From the NCBI GenBank assembly GCA_044378145.1, contig JBIPNX010000001.1, positions 1-26,747 on the forward strand: 26,747 nucleotides of DNA. The letters are read 5' to 3'. The position numbers and the translations under genes are program-made. Origin of the DNA: Flavobacteriales bacterium. GTDB taxonomy: Bacteria > Bacteroidota > Bacteroidia > CAMBQF01. Below the pieces are notes generated by a model. It made no database searches. It was not told where the DNA came from and saw only the letters and a list, made by a program, of their open reading frames with translations. Of the stretch, positions 7,747 through 26,747 are shown in pieces (the first letter of the stretch is position 1; the number at the start of each line of letters is the position of its first letter).

Positions 7747-8931
7747 ATGACAAGTTCAGACCAAGTGCGCACGTTAGTATCCTTATCTAACGTAGATGCT
7801 GCCCTAAAGGCAATAGCAGACAAAGTATTAGCAGACCAACGTATTACCCCCGAAGAAGGCATTTTGCTTTATGAAAAGGCCGACCTGAACTTTGTAGGTA
7901 TGCTGGCTAACTACATCCGCGAAAAGCGCCATGGCGACAAGGTTTTCTTTAACCATAACATACACATAGAGCCTACCAATATTTGTGTGTACGATTGTAA
8001 ATTTTGCTCGTATAGCCGCCTTACAAAACATAAGGAAGAAGGTTGGGAAATGAGCGAAGAACAGATACTGGAAAAAGTACGCAGCTACGATGGGCAAAAG
8101 ATTACTGAAGTACATATTGTAGGCGGCGTTCACCCAAAAATGGGCCTGCAATATTTTGCCGATTTGATTAAGAAAATTAAAGAAATACGCCCTGATATTC
8201 ACGTTAAAGCCTTTACTGCCGTTGAACTGCACTACATGTGCAAAAAAGCAAAGGTTAGCTATGAAGAGGGCTTACGGATTTTGAAAGAACACGGCCAGGA
8301 TTCTTTACCGGGCGGTGGTGCAGAGATTTTTCACCCTGATATTCGTACTGTTATTTGTGAAGATAAATGTACCGCTGACGAATGGCTGGAGATACACGAA
8401 ACAGCCCATAAACTGGGTATGCCGAGTAACGCTACCATGCTATACGGACATATAGAAACGTTTGCCCACCGTGTAGATCACATGGAGCGCTTGCGCCAGC
8501 TACAGGACAAAACAGGCGGTTTTAACACCTTTATCCCGTTAAAATTCCGCAATATGGGCAACCAAATGTCGCATATTAAAGAGTCGTCTATTATTGAGGA
8601 CTTACGTAACTACGCTATCAGTCGTATTTACATGGATAATTTTGGACATATAAAAGCGTACTGGCCTATGATTGGCAGGCAGATAGCCCAGCTATCGCTA
8701 GCCTATGGGGTGGATGATATGGACGGCACTATTGACGATACCACCAAAATATACTCTATGGCAGGTGCTGAGGAGCAGAGCCCATCGTTAACCACCCGCC
8801 AGCTTACCGAACTGATTAAACAGGTTGGTCGCCGCCCTATAGAGCGTGATACTGTTTATAATGTTGTTAAAGACTACACCGATTATGATTGGGGTAGGGA
8901 AGAGATAGAACTGGAAAACCAGAAGAATTAA
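7747..8931 (+). CDS. mqnE: Aminofutalosine synthase MqnE (radical SAM, CofH/MqnC/MqnE family)
   Basis: CxxxCxxC motif in FFNHNIHIEPTNICVYDCKFCSY, plus EVHIVGG, HVKAFTAVE, LPGGGAEIF, NATMLYGHIE and HIKAYWPMIG...GVDDMDGT. Confidence 0.82.
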   Translation: MTSSDQVRTLVSLSNVDAALKAIADKVLADQRITPEEGILLYEKADLNFVGMLANYIREKRHGDKVFFNHNIHIEPTNICVYDCKFCSYSRLTKHKEEGWEMSEEQILEKVRSYDGQKITEVHIVGGVHPKMGLQYFADLIKKIKEIRPDIHVKAFTAVELHYMCKKAKVSYEEGLRILKEHGQDSLPGGGAEIFHPDIRTVICEDKCTADEWLEIHETAHKLGMPSNATMLYGHIETFAHRVDHMERLRQLQDKTGGFNTFIPLKFRNMGNQMSHIKESSIIEDLRNYAISRIYMDNFGHIKAYWPMIGRQIAQLSLAYGVDDMDGTIDDTTKIYSMAGAEEQSPSLTTRQLTELIKQVGRRPIERDTVYNVVKDYTDYDWGREEIELENQKN

Positions 8932-8933
8932 AT

Positions 8934-8966
8934 AAAAAGCCCCGACATTGCAGTCAGGGCTTTTTT
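8934..8966. terminator. Bidirectional intrinsic terminator between convergent mqnE and guaB
   Basis: AAAAAGCCCCGAC-ATTGCA-GTCAGGGCTTTTTT. The single C/A mismatch on + is a U-G pair on the guaB strand. A/T tracts on both sides. Confidence 0.85.
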
Positions 8967-8983
8967 AAGCTATAATCTTTTTG

Positions 8984-9014
8984 CTAGAACCTAGCCCCTA
9001 GAACCTAAAAACTA
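8984..9014 (-). repeat. Degenerate 7-bp tandem array (TAG-N4)x5 starting at the guaB stop codon
   Basis: Minus strand: TAG-TTTT-TAG-GTTC-TAG-GGGC-TAG-GTTC-TAG. Confidence 0.75.
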
Positions 9015-10475
9015 CATCCCATAATTAGGAGCGTGGCTGGTGATAGATACCCCATGTGGGTGGCTCTCTTTTAAGCCTGCATTGGTAATGCGCACAAACT
9101 GAGAGTTCTCTTGCAATGCTTTAACGTTGGCAGCGCCGCAATAGCCCATACCTGCGCGTAAACCGCCTACCATTTGATACAATACCTCGGCTATAGAGCC
9201 TTTATATGGTACACGGCCTGAGATACCTTCTGGAACTAACTTCTTAATATCATCTTCCGCATCCTGGAAGTAACGGTCTTTAGAACCTTGTTGCATGGCT
9301 TCTATAGAGCCCATACCGCGGTACGATTTAAACTTACGGCCTTCGTAAATAATAGTATCGCCCGGACTTTCGTCAACACCGGCAAATGCAGAGCCTGCCA
9401 TAATAGAAGCAGCACCTGCAGCAATGGCTTTTACAATATCTCCAGTAAACTTAATACCACCATCGGCAATAAGGGGAATGCCTGTGCCTTTCAAGGCTTC
9501 GGCTACGTTAAATACAGCCGTAAGCTGCGGAACACCCACACCGGCAATAATACGTGTGGTACAAATAGAACCCGGGCCAATACCCACCTTAACACCATCG
9601 GCACCTGCCTCAACCAAAGCTAAAGCAGCCTCGGCAGTGGCAATGTTACCTGCTATTACCTGTAAATCGGGGAATTGTGTTTTGGTGCGTTTTACGGCAT
9701 CAATAACACCTTTAGAATGCCCGTGGGCGGTATCAATAATAACAGCGTCAACACCGGCCTTTTCAAGGGCTGAAATGCGCTCCAGCATATCGGCAGTAAC
9801 ACCAACAGCAGCAGCAACGCGTAAGCGGCCTAAATCGTCTTTACAGGCGTTAGGGCGTATACGGGTTTTAATAATGTCTTTATAGGTAATAAGGCCCACC
9901 AGTTCAAACTTATCATTTACAACAGGCAGCTTTTCAATTTTATGTTCCTGAAGAATGTCTTCGGCCTTGGCAAGGTCAACTTTATCGGCAGTAATAAGCC
10001 CTTCGCTGGTCATAACCTCGCGTATAGGGCGGTTCATGTTTTTCTCAAAACGCAAGTCGCGGTTGGTTACAATACCTACCAGTTTACGGTCGCCGTTAAT
10101 TACCGGTATACCACCAATCTTGTTCTCCTTCATCAGCCCTAAAGCATCGGCAACTAAGGCATCTTCCATCAAGGTAACAGGGTCCAGTATCATTCCGCTT
10201 TCACTCCGTTTTACCTTTTTTACCTCTTCGGCCTGGCGTTGTATGCTCATGTTTTTGTGCAACACCCCAATGCCGCCTTCCTGCGCAATGGCAATAGCAA
10301 GGCCACTCTCGGTAACGGTATCCATAGCGGCAGATACAACAGGTACGTTGAGTTTTATTTTTTTAGTAAACCAGCTGGAAACATCAACCTCGCGGGGGAG
10401 GACTTCAGAATAACGTGGAACGAGTAGAACGTCGTCGTAAGTAAGGCCTTCGCCAATAAATTTAGAACTTGCCAT
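9012..10475 (-). CDS. guaB: Inosine-5'-monophosphate dehydrogenase with CBS pair
   Basis: [22 protein letters not shown] region, IDTAHGHS, catalytic loop [32 protein letters not shown]. Confidence 0.98.
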
Positions 10476-12717: not shown

Positions 12718-12739
12718 ATTCCCGCTTACGCGGGAATGA
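12718..12739. repeat. REP-like palindrome ATTCCC-N8-GGGAAT(GA)
   Basis: ATTCCCGC-TTAC-GCGGGAAT is a perfect 8-bp stem. It has the same form as Neisseria dRS3 and the widespread GATTCCCGC....GCGGGAATGAC elements. Confidence 0.65.
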
Positions 12740-12750
12740 TATTTAGATTG

Positions 12751-12774
12751 CTAGAAACTAGCACCTACAACCTA
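12751..12774 (-). repeat. Degenerate 7-bp tandem array (TAG-N4)x4 starting at the metH stop codon
   Basis: Minus strand: TAG-GTTG-TAG-GTGC-TAG-TTTC-TAG. Confidence 0.7.
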
Positions 12775-15700
12775 ATACCCCAATACCGGGCTCAACCAAC
12801 GCTCAATAACTTTCAACTCCATGCCTTTGCGGCCGGCGTATTCAACCACCTGGTCTTTTTGTATTTTACCTAAGCCAAAGTATTTGCTTTGAGGGTGGGC
12901 AAAGTACATACCGCTTACAGCGGCGGTTGGGTACATGGCAAAGCTTTCAGTTAATGTAATATCGGCTTTGGCAGTGGCATCAAGTAATTTAAATAGCGTG
13001 GCTTTCTCAGTATGGTCGGGGCAGGCAGGGTAGCCCGGTGCGGGACGAATACCTTGGTATTTCTCAGCTATCAAATCAAAATTATCCAGCGTTTCATTTG
13101 GTGCATAGCCCCAAAATTCTTTACGCACACGCAGGTGCATCATCTCGGCAAAAGCCTCGGCCAGCCTATCTGCAAGGGCTTTCAACATGATGCTGTTATA
13201 GTCGTCATGGTCAGCTTCAAACTCGGCTAATTTCTTTTCTATACCAATTCCAGAAGTAACGGCAAATCCACCCCAATAATCGGGCAGGCCGGTTTCTTTA
13301 GGCGCGATAAAATCAGCGAGCGCGTAGTTGGGTTGCCCCGGCGCTTTTTTGTTTTGCTGGCGTAGGGTATGTATGGTTTCTAAAACCGTTGTGCGGGTTT
13401 CGTCGGTGTACAATTCAATATCATCGCCCACAGCATTGGCAGGCCAAATACCTATCACAGCTTTAGCCGTTATCCATTTTTCGTCGATAATTTTTTGTAG
13501 CACAACTTTAGCATCAGCATACAATTTAGTGGCTTCAACGCCTACTACTTCATCTTCTAAAATAGCAGGGAAACGCCCCGCCAATTCCCATGTTTGGAAG
13601 AAAGGTGTCCAGTCGATAAACTTAGCAAGCTCTTCTAACGAATAATCTTCAAATACTTTGGTGCCGGTAAATTTGGGCGTATATAAATCGTCAATATTCC
13701 ACTCAATGGGCGTACGGTTGGCACGTGCTGCCTCAATACTTATTGATTCTTTACCCGATTTTTTGCTCTCGTGCATTTCGCGCAAAGCAGCATATTCGGT
13801 TTTAATGCCGGCTTCAAATTCTTCTTTATTCTCTTTGCTTAGCAAGCTACCTGCAACAGGCACCGAGCGCGAAGCATCCAGCACATGTACAACAGCACCT
13901 GAATATTTAGGGGCAATTTTTACCGCAGTATGCATACGCGATGTGGTAGCGCCACCAATCAGCAATGGCATTTTCATACCACGCGCTTCCATCTCTTCGG
14001 CAACATAGGCCATCTCATCAAGCGATGGTGTAATAAGCCCGCTCAGGCCAATAATATCGGCGCCAATTTCCTGCGCTTTATCTAATATTTTTTCGGCAGA
14101 AACCATTACGCCCATATCAACAACCTCGTAGTTGTTGCAGCCTAATACCACGCCTACAATGTTTTTGCCAATATCGTGCACATCGCCTTTTACGGTAGCC
14201 ATAAGCACACGGCCTGCACTAGATGATGTACCTTCTTGTTTAGCAGCTTCTATAAACGGCAACAAGTATGCTACTGCTTTTTTCATCACACGGGCGCTTT
14301 TAACCACTTGTGGCAGAAACATCTTGCCTGCGCCGAACAAATCCCCAACCACGTTCATTCCGTCCATCAGTGGGCCTTCAATAACATCAAGCGGGCGGTC
14401 CGATTTTTGGCGGGCCTCTTCCACATCTTCATCAATATGGTCAACAATGCCTTTTATTAGAGCGTGTGCCAGGCGTTTCTCCACAGGCTCTTCGCGCCAG
14501 CTATTATCAACCAGAATTTCTTTGCCTTTGCCTTTAAAACTTTCGGCCATTTCTATTAATCGCTCGGTAGCATCGTCGCGGCGGTTTAGTAGCACATCCT
14601 CCACACGCTCCAAAAGGTCTTTTGGAATTTCTTCGTACACCTCAATCATACCGGCATTTACAATGCCCATATCCAAGCCCGCTTTTATAGCGTGGTATAA
14701 GAAGGCCGAGTGCATAGCCTCGCGCACTTTATCATTGCCGCGGAATGAGAATGAGATATTACTTACCCCGCCTGAAACCTTTGCCCCGGGCAGGTTTTCT
14801 TTAATCCATTTAGTAGCGCGGATAAAATCAACCGCGTAATTATTATGCTCTTCAATACCCGTTGCAACAGTTAAAATATTCGGGTCGAAGATGATATCTT
14901 CGGCAGGAAAACCTACCTGTTCTGTTAAAATTTTATAGGCGCGTTCGCATATAGCAATGCGGCGTTCGTAGCTATCGGCCTGGCCAGTTTCGTCAAAGGC
15001 CATAACCACCGCAGCAGCGCCGTAGCGTTTTACTTTTTTAGCATGGGCAATAAAGGCGGCTTCGCCTTCTTTTAAGCTGATTGAATTTACAATCGACTTG
15101 CCTTGCACGCATTTTAAACCGGCTTCAATAACGCTCCATTTAGAGCTGTCAATCATTACCGGAACGCGTGATATATCAGGCTCAGAGGCAATCAAATTAA
15201 GAAAGCGCACCATAACGGCCTCGCTATCCAACATACCTTCGTCCATGTTTACGTCAATAACCTGCGCACCATTCTCTACCTGTTGGCGGGCCACAATAAG
15301 AGCTTCCTCATAGCGGCCATCAATAATCAGTTTGGCAAATTTGCGGCTACCGGTTACGTTGGTACGCTCGCCAATGTTAATGAAGTTGTTGCCTTCTACT
15401 TCCACCATCGGCTCTAAGCCGCTGTAATGGCTGCGCTTTGGTAAATGCGGAGCAACACGGGGTTTATATTCAGCCGCCACGCGGGCAATAGCCGCAATAT
15501 GGTCGGGCGTGGTGCCACAGCAACCACCTACTATGTTTACAGAGTTAGCTTCTAAATATTCACGCACTTGCGTAGCGGTTTCTTCGGGCAATTCATCGTA
15601 TTCGCCAAAGGCGTTAGGCAAGCCTGCATTAGGATAGGCCGATACTTTAAACTCGGTATTACGCGCCAGTGTTTGAATGTAAGGCTTAAGCTGGCGTGCA

Positions 15701-16479
15701 CCTAAGGCGCAGTTAAAGCCAACGCTTAACAAGGGTAAATGTGATACTGAGTACAAAAATGCCTCAGCAGTTTGGCCTGAAAGGGTACGGCCCGAAGCAT
15801 CTGTAATGGTGCCCGATACCATGATGGGGTACATGTCGCCAATTTCTTCAAAGTACTTATCTACCGCAAATAGCGCGGCTTTGGCGTTAAGCGTATCAAA
15901 AATAGTTTCAATAAGGATGATGTCTACACCGCCTTCGCACAAGGCTTTCACCTGCTCATAGTAATAATCAGCCAGTTGGTCGTAGGTAATAGCACGGTAA
16001 CCAGGGTCGTTAACATCGGGAGATAATGATGCAGTTTTATTTGTCGGGCCAAGGGCGCCGGCTACAAAGCGCGGTTTGTCTGGGTTCAGCGCCGTCATTT
16101 CATCGGCTACCTCACGGGCAATTTTCGCTGATTCGTAGTTGATTTCGTATACCAAATGTTGGCAATCGTAATCCTCTTGCGCTACCTGCGTGCCGCTAAA
16201 GGTGTTGGTTTCCACAATGTCAGAACCGGCCTCGTAATATTGCTTGTGTATCGCCTTGATAATATCGGGGCGGGTAAGCGACAGTATATCGTTATTTCCT
16301 TTTAAAGGCTTATGATGGTCCTTCAACGAAGGATAGTTCCTGAAATCATCTTCTGTCAGCTTATAACGCTGAATCATGGTGCCCATGGCACCATCTAATA
16401 CCAATACGCGTTGCTCCAATGCAGCGTAGAGCTGCTTACGGCGTTCTGCCAATGTTGTTGTAGTTACTGTAGTTTCCAA
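12772..16479 (-). CDS. metH: Cobalamin-dependent methionine synthase, full four-module form
   Basis: [17 protein letters not shown] and GGCCGTTP (Hcy domain); [10 protein letters not shown] and DVNMDEG (pterin domain); [16 protein letters not shown] (B12 motif DxHxxG); [17 protein letters not shown] (reactivation domain). An in-frame TAA at 16495-16497 makes TTG 16479 the furthest possible start. Confidence 0.98.
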
Positions 16480-16492: not shown

Positions 16493-16598
16493 TTTTAGGC
16501 CTTTAATATCAATACCAAGCGCACAAACGCGTTTGCATTTGCAAGACAGTATAAACCGGATATAAAGTGTACAGGGAATTACTTAGAAGCATCGCTAT

Positions 16599-16719
16599 AC
16601 TTATCTCACCAAAACATTGCTGTTTTAGAGGAGTTGGCACCTTCGGAACGGGGCGATGAAGCGCCGTTAGGGGTTGCCAAGACTTCAACGGGCCGGTCCC
16701 TCAGTCTTTCTTGATAAGT
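16599..16719 (-). ncRNA. SAM-I (S-box) riboswitch aptamer upstream of metH
   Basis: Minus strand ACTTATCAAGAAAGACTGAGGGACCGGCCCGTTGAAGTCTTGGCAACC...AAGGTGCCAACTCC...GAGATAAGT. It has P1 ACTTATC/GATAAGT, the kink-turn GAGGGA..GGCCC..TGAAG, GCAACC and GGTGCyAAyTCC. Confidence 0.95.
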
Positions 16720-16736
16720 TGTATCAAAGAACACTG

Positions 16737-19070: not shown

Positions 19071-19078
19071 TATATTTG
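19071..19078 (+). promoter_or_regulatory. -7 promoter box (TATATTTG) for the cobalamin riboswitch-btuBG transcript
   Basis: Exact TAnnTTTG ending 4 nt before the riboswitch P1 5' strand. Confidence 0.8.
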
Positions 19079-19082
19079 CCGC

Positions 19083-19253
19083 TGCTAAGGTTTCTAATCG
19101 CGTTGATTGGAATTAAAAGGGAACGGTGTGAAAATCGCCGACACTACCCGGTGCTGTAAGTCCTTTATATGTTTTTTGCACAATGCCACTGTTGGTTTAT
19201 CCATCACGGGAAGGCGCAAAAGATAGGATGAGTCAGAAGACCTGCCACTAGCA
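19083..19253 (+). ncRNA. Cobalamin (B12-element) riboswitch
   Basis: AAGGT...AAAAGGGAACGGTGTGAAAATC...CCCGGTGCTGTAA...GCCACTG...GGGAAGGC...AGTCAGAAGACCTGCC (B12 box). P1 TGCTA/TAGCA. Sits upstream of a TonB-dependent receptor. Confidence 0.93.
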
Positions 19254-19295
19254 TAAATCAATACCGGCTTTCGGGAAGAAAGGCTGTTTGATACC

Positions 19296-21237: not shown

Positions 21238-22308
21238 ATGAAAAATAAAACACTTGTACGCTTTTTAACTTTTGGCGTGTTGGCACTTGCCGCAACTACG
21301 CTACAATCATGTAAAGACGATGAGCCTGATAATACCCCAACCGCTAAGAACTATGCTAATGGTGTATTTATTACTAACGAAGGCCCTTTTCAATCGGGTA
21401 GCGGTAGCGTAGCTTTTTGGAGCCGCGACAACCAAACCCGCGAAACCGATATTTACAATACCGTAAACGGCGTGCAGTTGGGCAATATTGTTCAATCGAT
21501 ATCGGTAAGCTTTGGTAAAGCGTATGTGGTAGTAAACAATGCCAATAAAGTAGCTGTTGTTGATGCTAAAACATTTGAAAACAAAGGCAGTATTGATGGA
21601 CTTGCTTTGCCACGCTTTTTTGTAGGTGTTACAGAGACTAAAGGCTACATAAGCGAGTGGGTTAGCTTTGGCGGCCAGGGCCGTGTATCGGTGGTAGATT
21701 TAACTACCAATACCGTTACCGGTACCATTACCGTTGGTGTATTACCTGAAAAGATGGTATACTTAGGTGGTAAGCTGTTTGTTGCCAATTCTAACGATTC
21801 TACCATATCGGTTATCAATACCCAAACCGACCAACTGGAAAGCACCATTACTGTGGGCGACTGGCCAAGCGGAATTGAAGCCGACCAAAACGGAAACCTA
21901 TGGGTGCTTTGCGGTGGCGTTCCATCGTGGACAGGCTCTGCAGCTACCTCTCCTGAACTGATTAAATTCAACCCTGCATCGCCAACATTCCAAACTACGT
22001 TTGATTTTGGTACGCCTGATAACAACCCATCGCGCTTAACCATTAACGGTACCCGCGATAAACTGTACTACCTATACAGCGGTGGTGTGTACGAGTTTTC
22101 TATCAATGCAGGAAACCTAAGCGCAAGCCCTGTAATCAACCGTTACTTCTATGGTGTGGGTGTAGACCCTGTTGATGGCAGCATTTACGGTGCCGATGCC
22201 GGAAATTTTACCTCGGTAGGCAAGGTTGTTAAATACAACAGCTCATTTAGCGCGGTAGATTCATTCAGCACCGATATTGCCCCAAGCGATTTTTGGTTTG
22301 TTAACTAG
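21238..22308 (+). CDS. btuG: BtuG-like surface beta-propeller lipoprotein (YncE/DUF5074 type), cobalamin-binding
   Basis: Lipobox LQS-C followed by KDDE (acidic surface-export signal), GVFITNEGPF, LGNIVQSI, AYVVVNNANKV and YGADAGNF. Starts 1 nt after btuB. Confidence 0.8.
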   Translation: MKNKTLVRFLTFGVLALAATTLQSCKDDEPDNTPTAKNYANGVFITNEGPFQSGSGSVAFWSRDNQTRETDIYNTVNGVQLGNIVQSISVSFGKAYVVVNNANKVAVVDAKTFENKGSIDGLALPRFFVGVTETKGYISEWVSFGGQGRVSVVDLTTNTVTGTITVGVLPEKMVYLGGKLFVANSNDSTISVINTQTDQLESTITVGDWPSGIEADQNGNLWVLCGGVPSWTGSAATSPELIKFNPASPTFQTTFDFGTPDNNPSRLTINGTRDKLYYLYSGGVYEFSINAGNLSASPVINRYFYGVGVDPVDGSIYGADAGNFTSVGKVVKYNSSFSAVDSFSTDIAPSDFWFVN

Positions 22309-22326
22309 GTGCTAGGGACTATGTTC
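22306..22326 (+). repeat. Short 7-bp-period array starting at the btuG stop codon
   Basis: TAG-GTGC-TAG-GGAC-TAT-GTTC. TAGGTGCTAG is identical to part of the metH array. Confidence 0.5.
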
Positions 22327-22343
22327 CCTGTTGACAGATAAAG

Positions 22344-22377
22344 AAAAGCCCCTGACTGCAACGTCAGGGGCTTTTTT
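22344..22377. terminator. Bidirectional intrinsic terminator between convergent btuG and ahpC
   Basis: Perfect 13-bp stem AAAAGCCCCTGAC-TGCAAC-GTCAGGGGCTTTT plus TT. Confidence 0.9.
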
Positions 22378-22384
22378 ATTTTAT

Positions 22385-22423
22385 TCCCCCTATCTCTTTA
22401 GGAGAGGGGGTTAGGGGGTGAGG
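22385..22423 (-). repeat. REP-like element of the CCTCACCCCnAACCCCTCTCC-N4-GGAGAGGGG type
   Basis: Minus strand CCTCACCCCCTAACCCCCTCTCCTAAAGAGATAGGGGGAA, starting 5 nt after the ahpC stop; slightly degenerate in the right arm. Confidence 0.6.
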
Positions 22424-22428
22424 TAAGA

Positions 22429-23061
22429 TTAATGAGCAGCTAAGTATTCAGCTACGCCACCGTGGGTAGCGTTCATAGCGTCTTCGCCTTTAGACCAGTT
22501 TGCAGGGCAAACCTCACCTTTTTCTTCTAAGTGTTGCAAAGCATCTACCACGCGGATAGCCTCGGCTACGTTACGGCCTAATGGTAGGTCGTTTACCAGT
22601 TGGTGGCGAACAACACCTTCTTTGTCAATTAAGAATAAACCACGGTAAGCAACCATTTCGGCTGAAGCTAGTAGTTGGTCGTTCTCGTCAAGTTCGTAAG
22701 AGCCGTTTAGCACGTCAAAGTTGTGCGATATGGTTTTGTTGGTATCGGCAATAATTGGGTAAGTAACACCTTGTATGCCTCCTTTATCTTTTGGCATTTG
22801 TAACCAGCCCCAATGCGCATGCTCATTGTCGGTAGAGCAACCTACAACGGCTACGTTACGTGCTTCAAACTCAGGCAAAGCAGCCTGGAAAGCGTGCAAT
22901 TCTGTTGGGCATACAAAAGTGAAATCTTTCGGGTAGAAGAACAAGATAACGTGTTTCTTGCCTATAAATTGGTCTAACGAGTAGTTATCTACAATCTCTT
23001 CGCCGTTAATTACGGCTTTAGCTTTAAATGATGGGGCTTTTTTGCCTACTAATACTGCCAT
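22429..23061 (-). CDS. ahpC: 2-Cys peroxiredoxin (AhpC/TSA family)
   Basis: FFYPKDFTFVCPTE (peroxidatic Cys), AYRGLFLID, GRN, GEVCPANW (resolving Cys). Confidence 0.93.
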   Translation of the reverse strand: MAVLVGKKAPSFKAKAVINGEEIVDNYSLDQFIGKKHVILFFYPKDFTFVCPTELHAFQAALPEFEARNVAVVGCSTDNEHAHWGWLQMPKDKGGIQGVTYPIIADTNKTISHNFDVLNGSYELDENDQLLASAEMVAYRGLFLIDKEGVVRHQLVNDLPLGRNVAEAIRVVDALQHLEEKGEVCPANWSKGEDAMNATHGGVAEYLAAH

Positions 23062-25537: not shown

Positions 25538-25575
25538 CTAATTACTATAACCTAACACCTAAAACCTATCCCCTA
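25538..25575 (-). repeat. Degenerate 7-bp tandem array (TAG-N4)x6 directly upstream of the ABC-F promoter
   Basis: Plus strand CTAATTA CTATAAC CTAACAC CTAAAAC CTATCCC CTA. Minus strand TAG-GGGA-TAG-GTTT-TAG-GTGT-TAG-GTTA-TAG-TAAT-TAG. Confidence 0.75.
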
Positions 25576-25581
25576 ATTTCG

Positions 25582-25589
25582 TACCTTTG
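25582..25589 (+). promoter_or_regulatory. -7 promoter box (TACCTTTG) for the ABC-F gene
   Basis: Exact TAnnTTTG 18 nt upstream of ATG 25608. Confidence 0.75.
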
Positions 25590-25607
25590 CACCCCTTTAA
25601 AAGTGCG

Positions 25608-26747
25608 ATGGTTTCGATAGAAAATTTAAGTGTTCATTTTGCCGGCAGGTATCTGTTTGATGAAATTAGTTATTTAGTTAACCCAAACGACCGTATCGGC
25701 CTTACCGGCCATAACGGTGCGGGCAAATCTACTATGCTTAAAATTATCGCCGGACAGCAAATGCCCGAGAGCGGTAAGGTATCAAAACCAAAGAATTTTA
25801 AAGTAGGCTACCTTCCGCAGGAATTGCATATTAGCGATACCACCAATCTATTGGAAGAAACCGCCAAAGCGTTTGAAGAAGCCAAACAACTGGAGGCTGA
25901 CATTGAGCGCATGGAAAAGGAGCTAATGGACGAAAATGCCGACCATGCGGGCGATGCTTACATGGATTTGGTAAACCGTTTTTCTGAAGCTTCGGAACGC
26001 TACAACCACTTAGGCGGTGGCAACTACATGGCGCAGGTAGAGAAAATTTTGATTGGCCTTGGATTTAAATCGGAGCAGTTTGGCCTGCACACTTCGGAGT
26101 TTAGCGGCGGCTGGCGTATGCGTATTGAGTTGGCAAAAATCCTGTTACAGCACAACGATTTACTTCTGCTGGATGAGCCAACCAACCACTTGGATATTGA
26201 GAGTATCGGCTGGTTAGAGGGTTTCCTTTCTAACTACGAAGGTGCTGTGGTAATGGTATCGCATGATAAGGCTTTTCTTGATAAAGCAACCAACCGCACC
26301 ATTGAAATTGCCGGCGGCAAAATACACGACTATAAAGCGAATTACTCTAAGTACTTAATCCTGCGCGAAGAGCGCCGCCAGTTACAATTGGCCGCTAAAA
26401 AGAACCAGGATAAATACATTGAGCATACAGAGGAGTTAATCAACAAATTTAAGGCTAAAAACAGCAAGGCATCGTTCGCGCAAAGCTTGATGAAGAAACT
26501 GGATAAGCTGGAGATTGTTGAGTTGGATGATGATAAGGTACAGTCTATCCGTTTCCGTTTTCCTGAGCCGCCACGCTCGGGCAAGGTAACGGTTGATGCA
26601 AAGGATATCCATAAATCATACGGCTCTAAAGAGATTCTGAAAGGCGTTTCATTAATGGTTGAGCGTGGCGAAAAGGTTGCCTTTGTTGGAAAAAACGGCG
26701 AGGGTAAATCTACCTTGTCTAAAGTACTGGCAGGTGTTATTAAAGAC
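25608..26747 (+). CDS. ABC-F family ATPase (ribosome-associated), 3'-truncated by the window edge; absent from the ORF track
   Basis: Manual translation: MVSIENLSVHFAGRYLF...GLTGHNGAGKST (Walker A1), FSGGWRMRIELAKILL, LLLLDEPTNHLD, VSHD, inter-ABC linker, and second Walker A GKNGEGKST. No TM segments. Confidence 0.93.
   Translation, partial: MVSIENLSVHFAGRYLFDEISYLVNPNDRIGLTGHNGAGKSTMLKIIAGQQMPESGKVSKPKNFKVGYLPQELHISDTTNLLEETAKAFEEAKQLEADIERMEKELMDENADHAGDAYMDLVNRFSEASERYNHLGGGNYMAQVEKILIGLGFKSEQFGLHTSEFSGGWRMRIELAKILLQHNDLLLLDEPTNHLDIESIGWLEGFLSNYEGAVVMVSHDKAFLDKATNRTIEIAGGKIHDYKANYSKYLILREERRQLQLAAKKNQDKYIEHTEELINKFKAKNSKASFAQSLMKKLDKLEIVELDDDKVQSIRFRFPEPPRSGKVTVDAKDIHKSYGSKEILKGVSLMVERGEKVAFVGKNGEGKSTLSKVLAGVIKD

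Follow-up and report, generated by a model that had tools for sequence, protein, structure and literature searches.

Heptamer arrays with a TAG core at gene ends and promoters of a Flavobacteriales genome and their probable relation to PF05635 cassettes

The guaB gene of a Flavobacteriales bacterium ends with a TAG codon that is at the same time the first of a series of TAG triplets with a period of seven nucleotides. This raises the question of what such a series is, and whether it has anything to do with the gene at whose end it lies. In many bacteria no long simple-sequence repeat is as common as the heptamer repeats, and questions about where they come from and what they do go back to the STRR work of 1990. 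The region considered here, named the window below, is the whole analysed stretch of 26,747 nucleotides. It forms contig C481 of a 2.8-Mb assembly, G000 (516 contigs, 43% G+C, 81% complete), whose gene set of about 2,300 genes was obtained with a simple codon-usage ORF caller. At least 24 metagenome studies of lakes and rivers contain DNA of the window, and the nearest named relatives of the GuaB protein come from uncultured Bacteroidia (77-79% identity).

The observed pattern is real and strongly non-random, and the arrays add a new and especially clear case to the intergenic heptamer repeats, a class already known. Probably they are solo arms, or relatives of the arms, of selfish cassettes with a PF05635 gene, and their TAG takes over the stop codon of the host gene. 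The case is unusually clean in its invariant TAG core, in the exact fusion of one array end with a stop codon or a -7 promoter box, and in the occurrence of such arrays as arms around a four-helix-bundle gene. In this way it connects the repeats with a functionally uncharacterised protein family. For genome annotation, it means that such arrays can set the stop codons of housekeeping genes, replace the -33 regions of promoters and break short-read assemblies.

Arrays in the window

The guaB array (positions 8984-9014) lies on the minus strand. Direct reading confirms five TAGs with period 7, the first of which (9012-9014) is the guaB stop codon. The spacers are TTTT, GTTC, GGGC and GTTC, that is, the units are TAGTTTT, TAGGTTC, TAGGGGC and TAGGTTC, followed by the last TAG. 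A bidirectional intrinsic terminator hairpin with a 13-bp stem between A and U runs was found at 8934-8966 by folding the region 8925-9020. It is common to guaB and the convergent radical-SAM gene (7747-8931) and is situated 17 nt past the inner (free) end of the array.

The second array, at positions 12751-12774 of the minus strand, starts on the stop codon of metH (12772-12774), as had been predicted, and direct reading gives four TAGs with period 7 and the spacers GTTG, GTGC and TTTC (units TAGGTTG, TAGGTGC and TAGTTTC, then TAG). Just inward of it, sequence and fold reveal a REP-like hairpin of the ATTCCCGCG-loop-CGCGGGAAT type (12718-12737). This is a separate dispersed element outside the metH array; hairpins of the same type occur 3' of metH and guaB in sister species.

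The array at positions 22306-22326 of the plus strand, assigned by the original prediction to btuG, is indeed anchored on a stop codon. However, it consists of the units TAGGTGC, TAGGGAC and TATGTTC, and, as only two TAGs are followed by one decayed unit (TAG-GTGC-TAG-GGAC-TAT), it is a short, decayed and weak remnant. Since its units end in C and thus create CTAG palindromes, the minus strand contains three TAGs, and in the genome-wide list the array appears as a three-TAG array of the minus strand. In one sampled population it has a deletion of 1 nt at position 22313. The gene (21238-22308, plus strand) encodes a DUF5074 protein and is preceded by a gene for a TonB-dependent receptor and by a cobalamin riboswitch.

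The fourth array (25538-25575) was likewise confirmed by direct reading. It has six TAGs on the minus strand and is antisense to both neighbouring genes. An ABC-F gene (ATG at 25608) has its -7 promoter box TACCTTTG at 25582-25589 of the plus strand; the TAG-5' end of the array precedes this box by 6 nt, and the array covers the place of a -33 element. The box fits TAnnTTTG, the Bacteroidota -7 promoter consensus. Tandem Repeats Finder (TRF) detected period 7 at 8984-9007 and at 25550-25576.

The gene names guaB and metH are right, as follows from domain matches: the guaB product (9012-10475, minus strand) has the IMPDH and CBS domains, and the metH product (12772-16479, minus strand) has five MetH domains. 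The ABC-F product contains ABC_tran domains. Our ORF calls also reproduced the earlier count of four genes ending with TAG and twelve ending with TAA in the window.

The arrays do not behave as structured RNAs. The guaB array alone has no significant structure (z -1.0), and no fold was obtained for either strand of the 25538-25575 array (0 kcal/mol, no better than shuffled sequences); where the 3' regions do fold significantly, this is due to the terminator and the REP-like hairpin. RNA structure within the arrays was therefore rejected. A known RNA family was rejected as well, since an Rfam search of the whole window found no family match on any TAG array; the only Rfam matches in the window are one SAM riboswitch and one cobalamin riboswitch.

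Neither a PF05635 gene in the window nor a convergent partner array near any of the four arrays was found. Therefore the arrays of the window are at most solo arms. The absence of a four-helix-bundle gene from the window had been noted correctly, the sole hit in the genome being on another contig, C129.

Abundance, unit structure and anchoring

The proposed genome-wide scan for TAG-N4 series revealed a strong excess. The pattern (TAG-N4)2-TAG occurs in G000 161 times, with 14.6 occurrences expected from the trinucleotide frequency, and there are 71 windows with four TAGs and 33 windows with five. If an array is defined as at least three TAGs at exact 7-nt spacing, merging of the strands yields 96 arrays in this genome, 81 of them intergenic. 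Each of five genomes of the genus contains 71-126 four-TAG windows, compared to 0-6 for the reversed control, whereas other families of the class carry other heptamer units. Seven is the commonest tandem period in G000 (355 arrays). Thus the original suggestion of a dispersed STRR-like repeat that supplies stop codons was largely right: the TAG arrays are one of several heptamer families found genome-wide, and orthologous genes lacking the arrays often end with TAA at the same codon.

The unit can be described as TAG-B-K-K-H, that is, TAG-[G/C/T]-[G/T]-[G/T]-[C/A/T]. It had been noted from the window that the spacers vary but mostly start with G. Indeed, G is the commonest nucleotide in position 4 (G 56%, C 22%, T 19%), but the spacers are not free, as 95% of units have G or T in position 5 and 88% have one of these two in position 6. 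The commonest units are TAGGTGC, TAGCTTC, TAGGTTC, TAGGTTT and TAGGTGT, and there are smaller sub-families TAGTGGN, TAGCTTA/TAGCGTA and TAGGGTA. Many arrays show TAG on both strands because of the CTAG palindromes made by units ending in C. With one mismatch allowed, arrays with three to eight TAGs number 10, 20, 24, 16, 7 and 4, respectively. The size distribution is thus unimodal, and a typical array has five TAGs and spans about 31 nt. A perfect array of eight units is present on contig C319. For all heptamer families taken together, the TRF copy number peaks at 4-4.5, and only one of 118 arrays has more than six copies. The invariance of TAG against the drift of N4 in orthologous arrays, and likewise the unimodal size, would fit a function, for instance protein binding, better than plain decay.

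The enrichment at stop codons was borne out. Among 37 sense arrays situated behind a gene, 21 start at offset 0 of the stop codon, whereas 1.14 are expected if each array is placed uniformly within its own intergenic region; 33 of the 37 lie no more than 16 nt from the stop. The same periodicity is visible in the complete set of 574 ORFs ending with TAG: TAG is found at positions +7, +14, +21 and +28 from the stop in 36, 29, 25 and 23 cases, with a mean of 11.6 per offset. A sister species, G001, has a complete genome, and 2.0 Mb of it give corresponding numbers of 32, 24, 31 and 26 against 10.6. No excess of TAG was found upstream of the 574 TAG stops at -7 and -14, nor after TAA stops. An artefact of ORF calling was rejected, as orthologues end at the same residue and there is no upstream periodicity of TAG.

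Arrays in the opposite orientation are anchored as well. Twenty-five of 44, including the array at 25538-25575, run into a TAnnTTTG box within -2 to +9 nt; the probability of such a box in that interval at a random intergenic point is 0.011 (p about 1e-37). In ten of these 25 arrays the final CTA itself supplies the TA of the box. Of the 68 intergenic arrays that could be oriented, 31 are directed at the start of a gene and not at a stop. The anchored end always is the 5' end of the TAG strand: next to a gene that points towards the array it is on the stop codon, and next to one pointing away it is on the promoter. Thus one and the same array end is always anchored, as both the stop-side and the promoter-side arrays fix the TAG-5' end. 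The gap at the other (3') end varies from 0 to about 1,600 nt and is typically between tens and a couple of hundred nucleotides. Hence position and orientation relative to genes are both non-random, on the stop side and on the side of the -7 box. Start offsets of arrays of all heptamer families, although a noisy measure, have their mode at 0/+1, and families without a stop triplet also sit at stop codons.

PF05635 cassettes and turnover between species

The original prediction mentioned that degenerate heptamers often flank four-helix-bundle genes in this phylum, and this link turned out to be correct. The PF05635 genes of the cassettes (23S-IVS/Avd-like) are of a type first encountered in 23S rRNA intervening sequences. 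A profile search of the assembly G000 identified a single PF05635 gene, on contig C129 (4229-4543). It is flanked by TAGGGGC-TAGGTTC-TAGGTGC upstream and by an inverted array downstream, so that the two arms are inverted TAGGTKC arrays. These are the same units as in the guaB and metH arrays. In a collection of 61 PF05635 loci, composed of the C129 locus and 60 loci fetched from the genus and other families of the class, inverted arms are present at 44, mostly with period 7 or 8. Each cassette copy has a unit of its own, such as TAGCTTA, GAGGAGT, GGTCAGR, AATTAAG, GAAAAAT, GATAAAR and TGAGNNN. In the arms the TAG-5' end is outermost. It abuts the stop codon of a host gene, several times at a distance of 0-2 nt, or else a host -7 box or start codon. 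The polarity of free-standing arrays is the same: among 91 assignable stop-proximal heptamer arrays of all families in G000 and G001, 73 are on the inward-read strand of an arm and 18 are opposite. The literature searched contains no link of heptamer repeats to the PF05635 family.

These data suggest the following scenario. The TAG arrays constitute a genus-wide degenerate heptamer family of the same kind as the inverted arms of the small PF05635 cassettes. The arms of a cassette are placed with the TAG-5' end outwards, abutting the host stop codon on one side and a -7 box or a start codon on the other. The arrays of the window would be solo arms either left behind by cassettes or spread together with them, with the polarity retained. 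An arm may sit directly on the last sense codon and supply the stop itself, since every unit starts with TAG and seven is not a multiple of three; in the opposite orientation, the final CTA may merge with the TA of TAnnTTTG. The exact anchoring could result from insertion at the stop codon, or else from loss of a spacer by TAG/TA microhomology. The arrays are likely to be passengers rendering no service to guaB or metH, and nothing unusual is implied for these genes themselves.

One site demonstrates the loss of the gene from a cassette directly. On contig C286 of G000 both arms are kept, and 12 nt there still match the 3' end of the gene that was lost; the same site is occupied by an intact cassette in the sister genomes G001, G003 and G004. 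Thus the earlier idea that the arrays are scars of a mobile unit is supported in kind: the same arrays form inverted arms, and C286 retains both of them. However, about 75 of the TAG arrays, out of 81 in intergenic DNA, stand alone, and within 150 nt inward of the arrays coding remnants of a four-helix-bundle gene were found only at the C129 cassette and on C286. Descent from a cassette is therefore established at one site, and we infer that most solo arrays have the same origin. No enzyme, target duplication or movement was seen for the arrays.

The link between the abundance of arrays and the presence of the cognate gene is suggestive, although loose rather than clean. Windows of the TAGSKKY type number 33 and 21 in the genomes with a C129-type gene, and 7, 13 and 13 where there is no orthologue with identity above 59%. 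Windows of the TAGCKKR type number 46, 19 and 12 in genomes with the cognate gene and one where the gene is deleted; however, there are 32 in G002, where the gene was not found. Array families for which no cognate gene was found are thus TAGCKKR in G002 and TAGSKKY in G001, G002 and G004.

Comparison of sister species, in which coding DNA is 76-91% identical and proteins are about 95% identical, yields both filled and empty cassette sites. Either an insert follows the host stop at a distance of 0-2 nt or it brings its own stop. One insert of 427 bp starts 2 nt after the stop, the stop codon being TAG at the filled site and TAA at the empty one; another begins directly after a TAG stop; and in one more case the arm gives a TAA stop two codons late and also a new N-terminus to the downstream gene. 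The loci of the window vary in a similar manner. The metH genes of G003 and G004 have arrays of another family (TAGCGTA/TAGCTGA) on the same stop, whereas in G001 and G002 metH ends with TAA and has no array. The guaB gene ends with TAA and one leftover unit in G003, and with TAG lacking an array in G001 and G004. Clean empty sites were not found for the window's own arrays, as the intergenic DNA of the sister species is too diverged.

Among 893 pairs of G000 and G001 orthologues, an array with period 7 lies within 14 nt of the stop codon in 35 genes of G000 and 37 genes of G001, compared to 0-8 for other tandem periods. Array-bearing gene ends are shared in 8 of 64 cases (12%; odds ratio 8.5), 27 being specific to G000 and 29 to G001, and three of the eight shared sites carry arrays of different families. 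For TAG arrays, two of 15 gene ends are common to both genomes. Between orthologous loci not only the presence of arrays varies, but the stop codon often switches between TAA and TAG: it differs in 27 of 64 array-bearing pairs and in 226 of the 829 others. In 13 pairs consisting of a gene with a TAG array and an orthologue without an array, the latter ends with TAA at the same codon in five cases, and the C-terminus of the host protein is unchanged in 11. In one conserved orthologous array all five TAGs are kept and all four spacers differ.

Within the species, on the other hand, the arrays are stable. Contigs from four independent lake and river samples, which can hide rare variants, show no length change in those spanning the guaB array (two samples), the metH array and the 25538-25575 array (three samples each). 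A hypermutable or phase-variable repeat was therefore rejected.

One possibility is that the arrays are microsatellites born at TAG stops by duplication of a heptamer through replication slippage and have no tie to cassettes. Among long simple-sequence repeats, those with a 7-nt unit are the most frequent in many prokaryotes, according to the account of Mrazek et al. (2007) given in PMC4679880; the number of units differs between species by whole units, as in the C129 arm compared between G000 and G003; and a perfect eight-unit array does exist on C319. However, slippage would copy the sequence that happens to follow each stop, whereas the spacers follow B-K-K-H at dozens of unrelated loci. 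Moreover, a gene is enclosed by inverted arms built of these same units, arrays are also anchored antisense at -7 boxes, the sizes are unimodal and not long-tailed, and no changes by 7 nt were observed at the three clear arrays. Hence an origin by slippage is quite improbable.

Another possibility is that of an all-frame stop cassette, selected by the host to catch read-through or frameshifted ribosomes on important genes. The arithmetic behind it is correct, as three units place UAG in all three frames and thereby close them. Besides, the arms contain more stop triplets than column-permuted controls (141 compared to 121 on the inward-read strand, p 0.017; 85 compared to 57 on the outward strand, p 0.0005), and among 63 arrays with a periodic stop triplet, the triplet shares the phase of the host stop in 24, with 9 expected. 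Still, there are nearly as many antisense arrays at promoters; arrays come and go between sister species despite the high protein identity; a periodic stop triplet is lacking in 55 of the 118 heptamer arrays near stops; and UAG back-ups after a UAG stop would be useless against UAG-specific read-through. Although the arms close more frames on the inward-read strand (25 loci) than on the outward strand (9 loci), this asymmetry is mostly due to composition, since the inward strand is C-poor and both strands exceed the permuted controls, so that stop loading specific to the inward strand was rejected. A host-selected stop cassette is therefore unsupported and, in our opinion, highly improbable. 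The stop-triplet data are compatible with an element whose arms sit harmlessly on stop codons.

Known relatives and a possible binding protein

The spacing of the triplets recalls sites of ring-shaped regulators. The HutP motif of the Bacillus subtilis hut leader consists of three UAG triplets with four-base spacing, and TRAP binds repeats of (G/U)AG; both types of sites are read by ring-shaped homo-oligomers. The UAG-N4-UAG-N4-UAG spacing of the HutP site is identical to that of the arrays. However, the latter number about 80 and occur in both orientations, and instead of being part of an attenuator leader they follow stop codons or precede promoters in antisense orientation. A search for HutP (PF09021) in G000, which is 81% complete, gave no match, whereas the B. 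subtilis control was positive; HutP was thus rejected as a reader of UAG-N4.

A more specific candidate is the cassette protein itself. The arrays may be tracks to which the homopentameric four-helix-bundle protein encoded by the cognate cassette binds, with five units per pentamer, on RNA or single-stranded DNA; the protein would then have a trans-acting role at gene ends and promoters, or the arrays would serve it as landing sites. The four-helix-bundle protein matches 2GSC (E 1e-22) and 2RLD, both of which are five-chain entries, and its Xanthomonas relative is cited as a homopentameric toroid (Warrier et al. 2016, PMC4990558). In agreement with this, the unimodal size distribution has its mode at five TAGs (about 31 nt), each cassette has a unit family of its own, the orthologous array described above keeps five TAGs while changing all spacers, the arrays are unstructured as RNA, and the families tend to be commoner where the cognate gene is present. 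At the same time, G002 has many TAGCKKR arrays where the cognate gene was not found; arrays in both orientations to transcription make a single role at the RNA level hard to frame; the low fraction of array gene ends shared between sister species (12%) is unlike a conserved regulon; and the conservation of TAG may result from shuffling of whole units. We consider the binding-track explanation unlikely.

In its general form, the prediction would be that each four-helix-bundle paralogue is a sequence-specific pentameric nucleic-acid binder whose site is five copies of its own heptamer, and that the solo arrays are genome-wide binding or homing sites; it is offered tentatively, as we doubt it more than we believe it. 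If true, it would explain both the function of the very large PF05635/23S-IVS protein family and the dominance of the 7-nt period among bacterial intergenic repeats, an old puzzle, and the stop triplet combined with period 7 would let the sites sit harmlessly on gene ends.

The preferred explanation, that of arms of PF05635 cassettes, has a close parallel in the intervening sequence (IVS) of the Coxiella burnetii 23S rRNA, which carries an S23p/PF05635 gene inside a long stem and is known in Leptospira as well (Warrier et al. 2016, PMC4990558). On the 5' side of the Coxiella stem there are tandem GACAGAT heptamers whose number varies between strains. ORF-bearing 23S IVSs are regarded as selfish, and RNase III processing has been shown for the IVS (PMC4990558). 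The C129 cassette and 43 of the 60 loci from relatives share this layout, whereas the arrays of the window have neither a gene nor a partner arm and lie between protein-coding genes, not in rRNA.

The polarity of the TAG arrays resembles that of the dispersed heptamers GGGAATC of Xanthomonas and GGGGAYT of Nostoc PCC 7120, about 90% of which are intergenic (Rehm et al. 2015, PMC4692102). The 5' side of these repeats is nearer to the ORF whichever way the ORF points: they lie on the coding strand behind stops, some overlapping the stop, and on the non-coding strand upstream of starts. Many form convergent inverted pairs, and they are not tied to surface or contingency genes. The TAG arrays, which are also tandem, intergenic and ORF-proximal with their 5' side, have the same polarity. 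However, the repeats described by Rehm et al. are G-rich, were studied as quadruplex formers and were not linked to four-helix-bundle genes (PMC4692102), whereas here the core is an invariant TAG with the rest of the unit degenerate, the first unit is the stop codon in more than half of the sense arrays (the 21 of 37 counted above), and the fusion with the Bacteroidota -7 box on the promoter side is specific to this lineage.

A third group comprises the TAACTGA repeats of marine Beggiatoaceae, cyanobacteria and some Bacteroidetes (MacGregor 2015, PMC4679880). Like these and the cyanobacterial STRR heptamers, the TAG arrays are intergenic, mostly with two to six copies, contain stop triplets and have a patchy distribution; further features in common with the TAACTGA repeats are species-specific sites, indel steps of 7 nt between close strains and, in Bacteroidetes, the presence of other heptamer families beside them. 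The difference is that in the Beggiatoaceae genome the repeats are mostly in the sense orientation just upstream of start codons and were proposed as sites of a translational regulator, whereas here the sense arrays are on stops. TAACTGA-like arrays also occur in G000, and in an unrelated Bacteroidia metagenome-assembled genome a run of TAGTRGA units starts on the TAG stop of guaB.

Heptamer families and convergent arrays

Tandem repeats with period 7 are the most frequent class found by TRF in the contig's genome (355 arrays). Examples are C54:4382-4414, C502:1096-1125 and C487:3874-3905 (contig numbers of this genome). Apart from TAG-N4, the heptamer families include TAACTGA-like, AATTATG, GAAAAAT, TTTCAGA, GAGGAGT and CGGTTNC, and in sister species most of these are also found as arms flanking four-helix-bundle genes. 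TAG arrays also occur in convergent pairs separated by 10-20 nt with no gene between them (C139:802-880, C60:2860-2919 and C491:1942-2029). Such hairpins, which contain no gene, resemble cassettes that lack their cargo, the cargo being a PF05635 four-helix-bundle gene between inverted heptamer arms.

Arrays and hairpins at gene ends

In the metagenome-assembled genome of Bacteroidia bacterium M30B66, a distant relative (guaB identity 78%), the TAG stop codon of guaB opens a run of at least eight TAGTRGA units (locus L210:2053-2115). This is an independent stop-anchored array on the same gene as in the window.

A REP-like hairpin of the ATTCCCGCG-loop-CGCGGGAAT type lies 3' of metH (window 12718-12737). 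Hairpins of this type are present at orthologous loci (L006, L008, L002 and L003), in sister species 3' of guaB as well. The ORF immediately 3' of guaB in one of the sister genomes, G004, may encode an IS200/RAYT-type transposase. A dispersed repeat at window 22338-22438 consists of a terminator hairpin and a C-rich/G-rich palindrome with GGGGGTTAGGGGGTG at the end. All four sister genomes contain dozens of copies, 80-95% identical, and contigs from other samples vary or break at this region.

The -7 box and start codons

Over the whole genome, distances from the Bacteroidota -7 promoter box TAnnTTTG to the next ATG cluster sharply at 4 nt (n=76; 5 nt, n=32), and thus many genes of this organism look leaderless. 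One example of the box with its ATG is at window 25582-25610. Several arrays directly adjoin such box-N4-ATG units.

Riboswitches and a repeat-containing ORF

The SAM riboswitch upstream of metH (window 16598-16720, minus strand) and the cobalamin riboswitch upstream of the pair of TonB-dependent receptor and DUF5074 genes (window 19071-19264, plus strand) are ordinary, and support the assignments of these genes. The large open-ended ORF at the window start contains a 255-bp tandem repeat (1395-1969; 2.3 copies, 74% identity), and the product is probably a surface protein with repeated domains.
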